Below are positions 1 to 1,979 of a stretch of 58,451 nt of DNA, piece by piece. The stretch covers positions 1 to 58,451 of the forward strand of contig CAAEUQ010000029.1 of the NCBI GenBank assembly GCA_900759005.1, written 5' to 3'. The stretch is from Clostridia bacterium (GTDB lineage Bacteria; Bacillota; Clostridia; Christensenellales; Aristaeellaceae). A program made the translations under genes and the position numbers. The notes under the pieces were generated by a model that was not told where the DNA came from, made no database searches, and saw nothing but the letters and a program-made list of their open reading frames with translations. Each line of letters starts with the position of its first letter. Within the stretch, counting starts at the first letter, position 1.

Positions 1-8
1 AGCGCCCT

Positions 9-49
9 GACCAAGCGCGGCAGCAATCGTCTGCGGGCACCGCCCGCCG
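9..49 (+). repeat. Family-A repeat, solitary X-box module
   Basis: The 41-nt string GACCAAGCGCGGCAGCAATCGTCTGCGGGCACCGCCCGCCG is identical to 176-216 and near-identical to 1939-1979 and 49155-49195. It embeds a GCGGGC-ACC-GCCCGC hairpin. Confidence 0.85.
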
Positions 50-74
50 CATTCTCAAAACGAAGAAACATAGC

Positions 75-216
75 AAATCGAGTCGCCATTCGACTCGATT
101 TGCGGTAAATTGGGTACAAACTGCTGCTCCGAACCAACACAGCTTTTGAATCGCTTCCCGATTCAAAATCGTCCCGACCAAGCGCGGCAGCAATCGTCTG
201 CGGGCACCGCCCGCCG
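75..216 (+). repeat. Family-A mosaic hairpin repeat, copy A-1 (hairpin - spacer - hairpin - X-box)
   Basis: Perfect hairpins at 75-101 (AAATCGAGTCG/CCATT/CGACTCGATTT) and 144-168 (TTTTGAATCG/CTTCC/CGATTCAAAA). Spacer is GCGGTAAATTGGGTAC..., and the X-box is at 176-216. Positions 107-216 align base for base with about 49085-49195. Confidence 0.85.
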
Positions 217-243
217 AGAGGAAGGAGCGGAGGCGAGGGCGAG

Positions 244-476
244 GGGGCTGAAAAATTCGTCGAGGGGCGCTTCTTCCATGAGCTTGCCACCATCCATGAA
301 AAGTATGCGATCACCGACTTCGCGCGCAAAACCCATCTCGTGCGTCATAACCACCATCGTCATGCCCGATTTCGCTCCATGCAGAGCGCGCGCACAATCG
401 CAATCCGCTGCTTCCGACCACCCGAAAGCAACGTCTTTGCGCGATCGGCAAGCCCGACGCGGCTCAGCAGCTGCAT
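244..476 (-). pseudogene. Remnant of a polar amino-acid ABC transporter ATP-binding gene (GlnQ-like): 5'-truncated, internally deleted and 3'-replaced
   Basis: The minus strand reads MQLLSRVGLADRAKTLLSGGRKQRIAIVRALCME (degenerate ABC signature LSGGQ -> LSGGR). A frame break follows, then GMTMVVMTHEMGFAREVGDRILFMDGGKLMEEAPLDEFFSP. Compared with the intact paralog at 43667-44407, the Walker A half and about 27 aa (Walker B, FDEPTSALDPE...) are missing. The reading frame runs into repeat A-1. Confidence 0.8.
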
Positions 477-561
477 CTTAAGTGCATTTAAGTCAGTATT
501 TATACATGATATTCAACATAATATGCAACATTAGTGCGTAAATATATAATTAAAGAGATGC

Positions 562-590
562 TTGCCGAATTTACGGAAACGGAGTACAAT
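562..590 (+). promoter_or_regulatory. Sigma-70-type promoter for msrC-greA
   Basis: TTGCCG (562-567), a 17-nt spacer, then TACAAT (585-590). It sits about 25 nt upstream of the ATG at 615, with GAAAGGTG as RBS. Confidence 0.55.
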
Positions 591-614
591 GAAAACTGAA
601 AGGTGTGAATTCTC

Positions 615-1097
615 ATGCAGGATTACGATCGATTGATTGCGCAGCTTAAATCACTGTTCGAGGGGGAGGCACACTGGCTTCCGAACTTGTCGAATGCGGC
701 GGCGGCGATATATGGCTTCATGCCGGATTTGAACTGGGCAGGGTTTTATCTTTTAATGGACGGCGTTCTGGTACTGGGGCCGTTTCAGGGAAAACCGGCG
801 TGCATACGGATTCCCTTAGGGCGCGGGGTATGCGGGGTCTGTGCTAAAACGAAGCAGGTGCAGCGGGTTGCGGACGTACACGCTTTTCCGGGACACATTG
901 CGTGCGACGGCGCGTCGAATTCGGAGATTGTGCTGCCGCTGATTCACGAAGGGCGGATCTTGGGGGTACTGGATTTGGACAGTCCCCTATATGACCGGTT
1001 CAGCGAAGCGGATCAGCGGGGATTAGAGGATTGTGCGCGGGTGATTGCGCGGGCGATTTGTGTTTTTGAAGGAGACAGCGTATGTACAACGAACTGA
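615..1097 (+). CDS. msrC: GAF-domain free methionine-(R)-sulfoxide reductase (YebR/MsrC family)
   Basis: NWAGFYLL..LVLGPFQGKPACIRIPLGRGVCG...QVQRVADVHAFPGHIACDGASNSEIVLPL matches the remembered E. coli YebR sequence almost motif for motif. Length is 160 aa. Confidence 0.88.
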   Translation: MQDYDRLIAQLKSLFEGEAHWLPNLSNAAAAIYGFMPDLNWAGFYLLMDGVLVLGPFQGKPACIRIPLGRGVCGVCAKTKQVQRVADVHAFPGHIACDGASNSEIVLPLIHEGRILGVLDLDSPLYDRFSEADQRGLEDCARVIARAICVFEGDSVCTTN

Positions 1098-1585
1098 GCG
1101 AAGTGGACATTCAGAAGATGCGCGAGGAGATTGAGCACATTCTGAAGGAAGTACGTCCGAAATGCGTTGAAGATCTGAAGGTAGCGCGCGGTTTCGGCGA
1201 TTTAAGCGAAAATTACGAATACAAGGCGGCGAAGCAGGAGCTGCGGCGCTGCGACAGTCGTTTGCGCTATTTACGCCGGATGATTGACACGGCGAAAGTG
1301 ATCAAGCCGGACTCCGCTACAGATCAGGTAGGTTTATTCGACACGGTTGAAGTTTTCTTTGAAGACGAGGGTGAAACGGATTGTTACCGGATCATGACGA
1401 CGCTGCGCGAAGACGTTATGGCAGGCATCATCAGCAAAGAATCGCCTTTAGGACGCGCCTTACTCGGTCACAAAGTAGGTGATCGCATAAAAGTTCGTGC
1501 GAGCGACTCCGTTGAATACTTCGTTCAAATCCGCGCTCTCCAAAAAGGCGCCGACGACCCGACCCTCCCCATTCGCTCTTTTTGA
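1082..1585 (+). CDS. greA: Transcription elongation factor GreA
   Basis: The GDLSENYEYKAAKQE acidic-tip motif is present in a coiled-coil N-terminus followed by an FKBP-like C-terminus. Length is 167 aa. The gene overlaps msrC by 16 nt. Confidence 0.9.
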   Translation: MYNELSEVDIQKMREEIEHILKEVRPKCVEDLKVARGFGDLSENYEYKAAKQELRRCDSRLRYLRRMIDTAKVIKPDSATDQVGLFDTVEVFFEDEGETDCYRIMTTLREDVMAGIISKESPLGRALLGHKVGDRIKVRASDSVEYFVQIRALQKGADDPTLPIRSF

Positions 1586-1722
1586 GGCTGAGCCTCAACG
1601 CAGTTGCTGCCGCGCTTGGTCACATCGAAATTGAGTCGGGAAGCGACTCAATTTCTTACTTGTTTCGTGATAGGACTTTGTTCCCAATTTGACGCGAATC
1701 GAGTCGGGAAGCGACTCGATTC
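1583..1722 (-). repeat. Family-A mosaic hairpin repeat, copy A-2 (inverted orientation)
   Basis: Terminal palindrome TGAGGCTGAGCCTCA at 1583-1597 (its first three nt are the greA stop). Truncated X-box TTGCTGCCGCGCTTGGTC at 1604-1621. Hairpins at 1628-1654 and 1696-1722 (AAATTGAGTCG / GAATCGAGTCG stems, GGAAG loop, which is CTTCC on the other strand). The spacer contains CCCAATTTGACGC, the reverse complement of GCGTCAAATTGGG. Confidence 0.85.
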
Positions 1723-1837
1723 GCTTTGTTTGTTCATTTTAAGAATGCAAAAGCGACCGCATTTTTGTCGTTCGATCGCTTTTATGTATTCCGGTTAACA
1801 TCGAACAAAGCGCAACCTATGCTCCAACATAGGGGGT

Positions 1838-1979
1838 GCAAGCCGCCACCACGGCGGCGCAGCGACCAGCAAATTGCGAACAGCGTGCTGCTTCGTACCA
1901 CAAAGAAATCGGGTCGCTTCCCGACCCGATTTCGCCGCGACCAAGCGCGGCAGCAAGTGTCAGCGGGCACCGCCCGCCG
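1838..1979 (+). repeat. Family-A mosaic hairpin repeat, copy A-3 (GC hairpin - hairpin - X-box)
   Basis: GCAAGCCGCCACCACGGCGGCGCAGCG at 1838-1864 (GCCGCC/ACCAC/GGCGGC). Hairpin AAATCGGGTCG/CTTCC/CGACCCGATTT at 1906-1932. X-box at 1939-1979. Confidence 0.85.

Follow-up and report, generated by a model that had tools for sequence, protein, structure and literature searches.

A lineage-specific interspersed repeat with three hairpins per unit at gene ends in uncultured gut Clostridia

Results

Copies of the repeat in the window

The window is the whole stretch of DNA analysed, 58,451 nt of a contig from a Clostridia bacterium. Its first 1,979 nt hold ordinary genes, and between and against their ends lie copies of an undescribed, lineage-specific, interspersed non-coding repeat of ~150 bases with three hairpins per unit (H1, H2 and a small hairpin). 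A covariance model built from 70 distinct units, searched against the window with a cut-off of E = 0.05, finds exactly five full units scoring 118-167 bits and nothing further below that E-value; the window contains one more unit, cut by its edge. The features are as follows.

~217-480, - strand: ABC ATPase pseudogene
615-1097: GAF-domain gene
1082-1585: greA
1-49, + strand: 3' end of the edge-cut unit, with box 9-26 and small hairpin GCGGGC ACC GCCCGC 33-47
59-222, + strand: unit A (167 bits), with H1 73-103 (loop CCATT), spacer 102-117, H2 144-168 (loop CTTCC), box 176-193 and small hairpin 200-214
1575-1738, - strand: unit B, inverted (162 bits), with terminal hairpin 1584-1596, box 1604-1621, H2 1627-1655, spacer 1680-1695 and H1 1694-1724, then TTTGTTTGTT
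1749-1783, no strand assigned: hairpin that resembles a terminator in both directions (AAAAGCGACCG ... CGATCGCTTTT), lying between units B and C, which are inverted relative to each other
1820-1985, + strand: unit C (134 bits), with GC-type H1 1838-1864, H2 1905-1933, box 1939-1956 and small hairpin 1963-1977
12779-12945, + strand: unit D (118 bits), with GC-type H1 12797-12823, H2 12865-12893, box 12899-12916 (two changes) and small hairpin CGCAG GAA CTGCG 12922-12934
49038-49225, + strand: unit E (49038-49201, 164 bits) plus terminal module, with H1 49052-49082, spacer 49081-49096, H2 49121-49149, box 49155-49172, small hairpin 49179-49193, a second GCGGCAGC motif and terminal hairpin CGAGGC TCA GCCTCG 49211-49225
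Family hairpin stems: 13 bp at 73-103 and 1694-1724; 10 bp at 144-168; 12 bp each at 1627-1655, 1905-1933, 12865-12893 and 49121-49149
X-boxes: 9-49, 176-216, 1939-1979 and 49155-49195; degenerate at 12899-12934; truncated and inverted at 1599-1621
GC hairpin: 1838-1864 and 12797-12823
Spacer: 102-117, 1680-1695 (- strand) and 49081-49096
Terminal palindrome: 1584-1596 (- strand) and 49212-49224

Counting perfect hairpins whose stem has 9 bp or more and whose loop has 3-8 nt, the window contains 11, of which seven belong to the family; 20 block shuffles give a chance expectation of 0-3 (mean ~1.1). A preliminary description of this DNA had reported seven hairpins with stems of 10-11 bp, and all seven lie where it placed them, most with longer stems than it gave (10-13 bp), as do the X-boxes, the GC hairpin, the spacer and the terminal palindrome. 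Its six CTTCC loops read so on the + strand in four cases only, while 1627-1655 and 1694-1724 read GGAAG on that strand because these copies are inverted, which had not been stated; its "four variants" of the stem are five by its own list. The X-box at 9-49, which it regarded as solitary, is the end of the edge-cut unit, since in another strain (L001) the corresponding position falls inside an array of + units.

Anatomy of the unit

The alignment of 70 distinct copies, read on the CTTCC-loop strand, gives the order H1, spacer, ~25 nt, H2, 5 nt, box, 6-nt linker and small hairpin. H1 is of several types, the spacer is GGTAAATTGGGAAC, and H2 has a 12-bp stem with an invariant CTTCC loop; perfect CTTCC-loop arms come in 32 distinct sequences. 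The 18-nt box (GACCAAGCGCGGCAGCAA) is nearly invariant and, though unpaired, is conserved far beyond any stem. The small hairpin (5-7 bp, 3-nt loop) is very variable: it follows 234 of 235 boxes, is perfect in 211 and occurs in 82 distinct sequences. The two ends of a unit are unlike, H1 with an A/T-rich flank at one and the box with the small hairpin at the other, and the aligned units have no terminal inverted repeats; only whole inverted units pair with each other. H1 is preceded by AAA, GTAA or ACATA in the aligned units, and the four bases 5' of H2 are CGAC, CGGC, CATC and similar on the sense strand and A-rich on the opposite strand. The motif GT[AG]G is absent from the foot of every hairpin in the H1 and H2 flanks of these units.

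Two units fold with stability z-scores of -4.0 and -5.8. The consensus and 55 individual folds contain no conserved long-range helix or pseudoknot: a helix between the box and the region 3' of H2, seen in one fold, is absent from the consensus fold of either strand and present in 24 of the 55 single folds, and the H2 loop (TTCCC) is complementary to the spacer (GGGAA), but the loop is invariant while the spacer varies without compensation. A tRNA-like T-arm reading of GGTTCGAA in the middle of the unit was rejected for want of a flanking stem. A CRISPR array, whose repeats are set apart by unique spacers, was likewise rejected, as the sequence between the hairpins is itself repeated. So was an integron attC site: such sites follow cassette ORFs of one orientation beside an integrase gene, whereas the flanking genes here are housekeeping genes in both orientations, and no GTTRRRY core was noticed by eye in the aligned units.

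Distribution of the family

An exact pattern scan matched 1 of 185,579 species representatives, and ~0.99 Mb of related DNA that was fetched contains 235 X-boxes. The family occurs in the window species, in the CAKUKM01 species (79-89% nucleotide identity to the window species in shared genes) and in sister species 1, with a diverged form in sister species 3, which makes at least four related species; the repeat is thus not a matter of a few copies in one genome. In the two 20-kb segments of Ca. Faecivicinus avistercoris that were examined, it was not found. The known carriers are a few related uncultured gut Clostridia.

The sequence had not been recognised as any described element in the preliminary description, and the searches agree. 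Rfam 15 gives no match at gathering thresholds across the whole window, and at E up to 10 over positions 1-2100 the only contact with the element is a chance CRISPR-DR22 match (E = 8.9). A two-unit array used as a blastn query has no match in 72,556 plasmids or 50,697 phages, and literature searches returned general papers on REPs, RAYTs and MITEs, none of which describes this repeat.

Compensated stems

Stem pairing is strongly supported by covariation: 96.8% of stem cells are paired compared with 82.5% in shuffles (none of 500 shuffles reaches the observed value), 158 cells are changed on both sides compared with 42 in shuffles, and shifting the partner columns by 1-3 positions leaves only 29-55% paired. 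Mismatches affect 23 of 1,431 stem pairs, eight of which are neither G.T nor A.C, and G.U mismatches number 11 on the sense strand versus four on the reverse.

The paired substitutions had been taken to argue for selection on the hairpin itself. The compensation is real, but stems could also be kept perfect by mutation, through intrastrand template switching in quasi-palindromes, gene conversion among dispersed copies, or both, an explanation that we consider plausible although somewhat short of even odds. The small number of mismatched pairs fits such upkeep, and at a single junction the terminal hairpins of strains with identical flanks differ by at least two fully compensated pairs; the compensated alleles include CGAGGC/GCCTCG versus CAAGAC/GTCTTG and TTAAAGC versus TCAAGGC. 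The hairpin variant CAAGGC TGA GCCTTG ACGCAG recurs at unrelated loci, which points to module exchange. Pairing is nevertheless kept where one arm is protein-coding, as at the end of the IspH (LytB)-S1 fusion gene (GCGGT/ACCGC versus GCGGC/GCCGC) and at groES (TCGAC/GTCGA versus CCGAC/GTCGG); this speaks against a mutational origin, although selection predicts the same, and the two explanations are not exclusive.

Arrays and differences between strains

Units are found alone, repeated head to tail in arrays, or in two arrays of opposite orientation that enclose a central terminator, and in all 12 inverted pairs the box ends point outward. Central hairpins resembling that at 1749-1783 are found at two further loci of the window species. 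Between strains, arrays gain or lose units, the DNA that inverted arrays enclose is flipped and terminal modules are swapped. Across strains the greA 3' site carries one to four units, a flipped central segment and exchanged terminal modules, the flipped segment in this window being ~1739-1830, around the terminator-like hairpin. In eleven strains the ATPase/solute-binding-protein site holds between one and about four units, and its terminal hairpin occurs as two alleles; one copy of the repeat lies at the breakpoint of a larger inversion. These changes are best explained by recombination among copies.

The inverted pairs bear on the mobile unit itself. If the whole pair (box ... H1, terminator, H1 ... 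box) were a MITE, with its box ends recognised by a DDE transposase as terminal inverted repeats, single arms and arrays would have arisen from it by decay. The uniformly outward box ends are in keeping with this, as are arms of 57-145 nt that are 77-86% complementary (pairs I1 and I4) and the fact that a pair occupies the entire gap between convergent genes. The two arms of a pair mostly bear different H1 types, however, single arms and one-sided arrays outnumber pairs, central hairpins vary between loci in the CAKUKM01 species, no target-site duplication was found and no insertion sequence in the fetched DNA has related ends. We regard this as very unlikely, and the label "MITE-like" used earlier is unsupported, as the units have no terminal inverted repeats and no target-site duplication was detected. 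A genuine element with terminal inverted repeats, "Family B", does lie in the same window at 17856-18023.

Placement against stop codons

The elements occupy 48 non-redundant intergenic regions, 27 convergent, 16 tandem and five divergent, and the genes around them are ordinary (secA, htrA, groES, sigma and anti-sigma factors, a solute-binding protein, a P-type ATPase and others). In about 47 cases the box end looks onto the 3' end of a gene and in 13 onto a 5' end; the computed ratio was 42 to 13, to which five gene ends that had escaped the filter were added by hand. Between tandem genes the orientation rule is weak, with the box facing the upstream stop nine times and the downstream start six times. 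It is the box end, never the H1 end, that sits tight against coding sequence.

In most cases the outermost small hairpin overlaps or adjoins the stop codon of the gene next to it, and it often provides that stop: of 65 junction variants, 41 have the stop within the hairpin, linker or box and another 10 have it 0-3 nt upstream. In the window, the box end of unit A adjoins the 3' end of the ABC ATPase pseudogene, whose frame reads through hairpin and box, and the terminal hairpin of unit B overlaps the greA stop codon (1583-1585). The linker of unit C holds the stop of a - strand beta-lactamase-family gene (1960-1962), so that the hairpin encodes the last residues of that gene. Unit D abuts and overlaps the 3' end of a - strand rhamnosidase-like gene (12886-14901), the orthologue of which in a second species (L017) also bears an element at its end, and the loop of the unit E terminal hairpin is the TGA stop (49217-49219) of a - strand solute-binding-protein gene. 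In four comparisons between species with an empty and a filled site, the edge of the element lies within about one codon of the native stop.

Copying of the terminal hairpin from native coding sequence was rejected as a general rule, because at most junctions the gene reads into a hairpin from the shared pool of variants. The repeat might instead be a mobile 3'-end cassette that targets stop codons, integrating within about one codon and replacing the native stop and last residues with a TGA-carrying hairpin, pushing the native terminator downstream and supplying new stem-loops. Integration would then read the end of the coding region (e.g., ssDNA or RNA exposed where ribosomes leave) by way of the 18-nt box, and the terminal hairpin would be re-templated and stay paired though one arm is coding. 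We consider this quite unlikely; if true, it would be a behaviour undescribed for bacterial repeats.

A possible role in the 3' untranslated region

From the sequence features, we favour a REP/BIME-like cassette of 3'-end hairpins and attenuator that acts in the 3' untranslated region of the abutted gene, with a probability of roughly 55%. The element would be co-transcribed with that gene as part of its 3' untranslated region, and by analogy with enterobacterial REP/BIME the stem-loop cassette may attenuate transcription and block 3'-to-5' decay without being a full terminator. The hairpins score as terminator-like on the gene-sense strand only, as do H1 and H2 of unit B on the greA strand, and the 8 nt after the hairpin on that strand contain on average 4.6 T for H1 and 3.5 T for H2 against a background of 22%. 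H1 and some H2 copies thus show the G+C-containing stem and directly following U-rich tract of an intrinsic terminator, but a T-rich tail is missing from many H2 copies, above all those of the CAKUKM01 species. The groES-groEL operon is normally co-transcribed, and the gap between the two genes contains two intact units and one degenerate unit, so that the element cannot be an efficient terminator there. A role in RNA leaves unexplained both the tight placement of the box end at coding sequence and the conservation of the unpaired 18-nt box beyond that of the stems.

Alternatively, the repeat could be a trans-acting structured RNA family, for example a sponge or landing pad for a protein that reads GGA loops (GGAAG or GGAGG on the sense strand) together with the box (UUGCUGCCGCGCUUGGUC). 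Arrays show the invariant purine-rich pentaloop GGAAG many times over, the sense-strand loop of H1 reads GGAAG, GACAA or GATAG, the conserved box is unpaired between two hairpins and the folds are stable. A promoter of its own is not evident, however, no conserved long-range helix or pseudoknot and no Rfam relative was found, and some copies are antisense to all nearby transcription, such as the element at the secA promoter, which is antisense to both neighbours. Such an RNA family is very unlikely in our estimate.

Spread of the repeat

Whatever the copies do once in place, spread to new gene ends would need a trans-acting activity, and its recognition site would most plausibly be the invariant box beside H2. 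In REP/RAYT systems each family has one cognate RAYT (Y1/HUH) gene, which the repeats themselves flank (a REPtron). No transposase was found among the ORFs flanking the elements, and no Y1_Tnp/RAYT domain (PF01797) among the Pfam-called genes of 23 loci or in 20 flanking ORFs that were scanned. In 44 non-redundant arrays the longest word common to the two outer flanks follows the distribution for random pairs (mode 5-6), which gives no sign of a target-site duplication and leaves room for duplications of 2-4 nt.

In a true REP/REPIN analogue, the hairpins would form in single-stranded DNA and a HUH/Y1 enzyme (RAYT or IS200-type TnpA), the product of a single-copy gene at another place in the genome, would cut and rejoin them, with the invariant loop and the box beside H2 as the recognition and cleavage site and any effects on RNA as by-products. 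Several features are as such a system would have them: variation in the stems is compensated and the H2 loop and box are nearly invariant, which fits a protein reading a hairpin tip and a single-stranded motif; target-site duplications and terminal inverted repeats are absent, as at REP and IS200/IS605 ends; inverted doublets exist; and the family is lineage-specific and vertically inherited across related species. The hairpin foot without GT[AG]G, the 150-nt units of three hairpins set head to tail and the missing Y1_Tnp domain all count against it. So does the occurrence of both orientations within a few hundred bases, indicating that placement does not track the direction of replication, unlike IS200/IS605 insertion. 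We rate this reading as rather unlikely.

Discussion

The repeat is a new family, similar in kind to the REP/BIME and BOX repeats known from other bacteria. REPs are hairpins mobilised by one RAYT per family, with GT[AG]G as the canonical foot (PMC6006769). The family has in common with the REP/BIME elements of Enterobacteria and Pseudomonas that extragenic hairpins and conserved linker motifs are combined in mosaics at gene 3' ends and inside operons, with strain-variable cluster size, lineage-specific vertical inheritance, no target duplication and a proposed role in mRNA 3'-end protection and transcription attenuation; a high copy number, extragenic location and lineage-specific distribution are also common to REP/RAYT systems. 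It differs in its ~150-nt unit with three hairpins and an 18-nt unpaired box, where a REP is a palindrome of 20-40 nt, and in its head-to-tail rather than alternating arrays, its Clostridia host, the missing GT[AG]G foot and the absence of any RAYT in the DNA scanned. The earlier term "REP/BIME-like" is thus apt for the behaviour of the repeat, whereas membership of that class does not follow, given the last two of these features and the head-to-tail units. REPINs, which are REP doublets forming hairpins (PMC3116915), likewise consist of inverted doublets whose arms are able to pair. In the present family each arm is a complete 150-nt unit or an array, the two frequently differ in subtype and they enclose a separate terminator hairpin; single arms are commoner than doublets.

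The BOX elements of Streptococcus pneumoniae are also intergenic and modular repeats of Firmicutes with an internal module in variable number, but their sequence is unrelated and they have fixed boxA and boxC ends around copies of the 45-nt boxB. BOX elements, too, are predicted to form stable stem-loops and to be co-transcribed with neighbouring genes; we know of no mobilising enzyme for them, nor of any stop-codon-embedded terminal hairpin or outward-facing polarity. MIRUs (mycobacterial interspersed repetitive units) share tandem intergenic units, strain-variable copy number and ends that overlap flanking stop or start codons, but they are 46-101 bp long, carry small ORFs with a presumed role in translational coupling and are not built from hairpins. 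MITEs of the terminal-inverted-repeat type (Correia/NEMIS, ERIC and RUP) and bcr1 of Bacillus cereus are intergenic, RNA-foldable elements of ~100-170 nt that can carry terminator or promoter activity. Terminal inverted repeats and short target duplications mark these elements; in the present family neither was found.

The repeats have practical consequences. They break assemblies, since many copies lie at contig ends and one array (L006) includes a run of N, and they drive local inversions and alter annotated protein C-termini between strains, as in a solute-binding protein of 606 or 608 residues. Their strain-variable copy number could serve as a typing marker for a common uncultured lineage of the human gut. 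Two questions follow from the family: which enzyme or process sets the box end beside coding sequence, and how stems remain perfect where one of their arms is protein-coding. To our knowledge, nearly all that has been established on REP-type systems comes from Proteobacteria, and the present family is a counterpart to them in Clostridia with a different architecture.

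Family A is a single ordered repeat unit

Family A is a real, well-supported repeat family. Sequence reading and an exhaustive hairpin search of the window recovered every hairpin listed in the preliminary description, most of them with stems 1-2 bp longer than stated. The window contains 11 perfect hairpins (stem at least 9 bp, loop 3-8 nt), seven of which belong to Family A; in block shuffles the count, regardless of family, is 0-3. The positions reported for the X-boxes, the GC hairpin, the spacer and the terminal palindrome are all confirmed. In an alignment of 70 distinct copies, taken from the window and from related contigs, the module order never varies, showing that Family A is one ordered unit rather than a set of loose modules; the copies had been described as carrying different subsets of these.

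Modules of the Family A unit, in order on the CTTCC strand
1: H1, 13-bp hairpin with variable loop, or GC-rich type
2: spacer, GGTAAATTGGGAAC
3: about 25 nt between spacer and H2
4: H2, 12-bp stem with invariant CTTCC loop
5: 5 nt between H2 and box
6: 18-nt box, GACCAAGCGCGGCAGCAA
7: linker, 6 nt
8: small hairpin, 5-7 bp stem, 3-nt loop

In this alignment the 41-nt X-box resolves into the 18-nt box plus the small hairpin, and the terminal palindrome is another small-hairpin variant with a partial box repeat (GCGGCAGCAA) just before it. Searched with a covariance model built on the unit, the window gives five full units and no other match.

Family A units in the window
59-222, + strand: unit A
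1575-1738, - strand: unit B
1820-1985, + strand: unit C
12779-12945, + strand: unit D
49038-49201, + strand: unit E

The X-box at 9-49, taken to be solitary, is the tail of a sixth unit that runs off the window edge. Because the hairpins at 1627-1655 and 1694-1724 read GGAAG on the + strand, these copies are inverted. The interval 1-1979, assigned as a whole to Family A, holds the repeats together with a GAF-domain gene, greA and a truncated ABC-transporter ATPase gene, which are not repeat. The reading frame of the ATPase gene (...THEMGFAREVGDRILFMDGGKL..., about 217-480, - strand) continues into unit A, across its small hairpin and its box, indicating a pseudogene in which the element has taken the place of the original 3' end.

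Distribution among related species

Exact matching of the greA product identified six contigs from human-gut assemblies that belong to the same species as the window, including one in GCA_963600755.1. A strict DNA pattern scanned against 185,579 genomes, one per species, matched a single MAG, 'uncultured Clostridia bacterium' CAKUKM01 (21 matches), which is a different species, with 79-89% DNA identity to the window species in shared genes. The scan did not return the window's own species and therefore understates the distribution. Three more lineages were reached through greA homologues. Sister species 1 (GreA 84% identical) has no element after greA and carries one 3' of an ispH (lytB)-S1 fusion gene. 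Sister species 3 (GreA 80%) has a diverged element after greA, with box TTGCTGGCGCGACGTTCAC, H2 closing pairs altered with compensation and an H1 loop of GGAGG. No element was found in two 20-kb contigs of Ca. Faecivicinus avistercoris (GreA 76%). A looser hairpin pattern matched 61 further metagenome contigs, and searches of Rfam, plasmids and phages found nothing for Family A. The 0.99 Mb of collected DNA contains 235 boxes, 234 of them followed by the small hairpin (perfect in 211), and yields 32 different sequences for perfect CTTCC-loop arms and 82 for small hairpins.

Stems remain paired while their sequences change

Across the 70 distinct units, 96.8% of H2 and small-hairpin pairs are paired, compared with 82.5% for shuffled partners (none of 500 shuffles is as high), which bears out the proposed stem covariation. 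Changes on both sides occur in 158 cells versus 42 in shuffles, and offsetting the partner columns by 1-3 reduces pairing to 29-55%. Stems stay paired even where one arm is protein-coding: the ispH (lytB)-S1 gene of the window species ends in GCGGT TGA ACCGC and that of sister species 1 in GCGGC TGA GCCGC, and groES genes from two species end in TCGAC TAA GTCGA and CCGAC TGA GTCGG. The compensation had been attributed to selection on the hairpin. However, strains with identical flanks can have terminal hairpins differing by two compensated pairs, and one small-hairpin variant recurs at unrelated loci, indicating that module exchange or palindrome-templated repair contributes; selection is thus just one of the possible readings of the compensated stems.

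Units adjoin gene ends, box outward

The 48 non-redundant element-bearing intergenic regions comprise 27 convergent, 16 tandem and five divergent ones. Wherever both orientations occur (12 of 12 inverted pairs), the box ends are on the outside and the H1 ends on the inside, in most cases separated by a terminator hairpin. The box end lies toward a gene 3' end about 47 times and toward a 5' end 13 times (computed as 42:13, plus five filter-missed gene ends assigned by hand); within tandem gene pairs the orientation bias is only 9 to 6. The stop codon falls within the terminal hairpin, linker or box in 41 of 65 junction variants and 0-3 nt upstream in 10 more. On the gene-sense strand, TGA occurs in the loop, the 3'-arm end and the linker of the terminal module, and inside the box in one variant, so that an incoming reading frame stops quickly.

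In four of four comparisons of filled and empty orthologous gene ends between related species, the start of the element is no more than about a codon away from the native stop. The native terminator, 2-25 nt after the stop in empty alleles, is displaced in filled ones. This tightness is partly expected, since there is almost no spare DNA between stop codon and terminator, but this does not explain why the end lying against coding sequence is always the box end. At one 'empty' gene end (related contig L010, about 6800-6835), a 17-nt stretch covering the last codons and the stop is directly duplicated (AACTGTTCCTGAAATAA / AACTGTTCCTGAAATAG), which could be a footprint or simple slippage.

Strain variation and neighboring repeats

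Depending on the strain, one to four units follow greA. Between the inverted arrays there, a segment of about 90 nt (window about 1739-1830) containing a bidirectional terminator hairpin (1749-1783) is flipped in three of seven strains (L002, L003 and L006), a small polymorphic inversion bounded by inverted copies of the repeat. At the greA stop the module has two forms, TGA plus GAGGCTGAGCCTC or TAG plus CGGGCGGGCGGTGCCCGC, and at the end of the neighboring gene some strains have a 34-nt terminal module that others lack. The ATPase/solute-binding-protein site has one to about four units among eleven strains, and the protein is 606 or 608 residues long depending on which of two terminal hairpins is present. 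Sub-modules are also amplified independently, with periods of 43 nt and 56 nt.

On a larger scale, the block from recJ to two peptidyl-prolyl isomerase genes (window 3862-12193) is inverted relative to sister species 3 (L024 11740-20068), and unit D lies at one breakpoint. A second repeat, Family B, is a 168-nt MITE-like element unrelated to Family A, with 19-nt terminal inverted repeats (TTAAGGCAACACCGCACAA ... TTGTGCGGTGTTACCTTAA) and possibly inserted at TTAA; in strain L001 a copy is immediately adjacent to a Family A unit. Strain-specific IS insertions of the IS21-type, DDE_Tnp_1_6 and Transposase_mut families occur near the greA region, and their ends are unrelated to Family A; L023 also has a phage-type integrase gene.

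Family B copies and IS insertions near greA
Window 17856-18023: Family B
Window 32660-32789, reverse orientation: Family B
L001, about 8390-8560: Family B
L004 348-2562: IS insertion
L021 10631-16352: IS insertion
L023 10633-12866: IS insertion

Elsewhere in the window, a surface-protein-like ORF of 1,865 residues (51080-56677, - strand) has Flg_new and MucBP repeats and internal 148-nt repeats, and its length varies from 1,852 to 2,670 residues across strains. The next ORF (57608-57823) contains a coding repeat with a 12-nt period.

Likely function and kinship

On the strand of the abutting gene, the tail after H1 has 4.6 T in 8 nt (background 22%), and that after H2 is moderately T-rich (3.5 T in 8 nt). 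A consensus scan calls the hairpins terminator-like on the gene-sense strand only, and two units have folding energies well below those of shuffled controls (z = -4.0 and -5.8). On these sequence features we favor a REP/BIME-like role as 3'-UTR stem-loops, which would attenuate read-through and may protect the upstream message. A strong terminator everywhere is ruled out by the groES-groEL gap, which holds two intact units and a degenerate one, by copies antisense to both neighbors, such as that upstream of secA, and by the weak tandem bias. At secA, a consensus promoter lies between the element's terminal hairpin, which it directly adjoins, and the start codon (L011 4625-4665; perfect TTGACG-18 nt-TATAAT, ending 7 nt before ATG), which suggests a leaderless or near-leaderless transcript. 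A weak fluoride-riboswitch match in the greA coding region (1415-1468, - strand; 18 bits against a gathering threshold of 34, E = 0.059) is probably due to chance.

The REP/BIME-like, lineage-specific reading holds at the level of behavior. Family A has no terminal inverted repeats and no detectable target-site duplication at its flanks, and its stems vary next to a loop and a box that do not; it therefore fits single-strand-handled hairpin elements such as REP/RAYT and IS200/IS605 ends better than DDE-type MITEs. The GT[AG]G foot canonical for REP hairpins (PMC6006769) is absent, however, and no Y1 gene occurs among the annotated or scanned neighbors of Family A copies. Family A is a new addition to the known class of bacterial interspersed mosaic repeats, unusual in its strictly outward box end, in a terminal hairpin that contains stop codons and changes fast but always stays paired, and in its three-hairpin unit in head-to-tail arrays. 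It is of moderate relevance to specialists in bacterial genome architecture and to the assembly and annotation of gut Clostridia.
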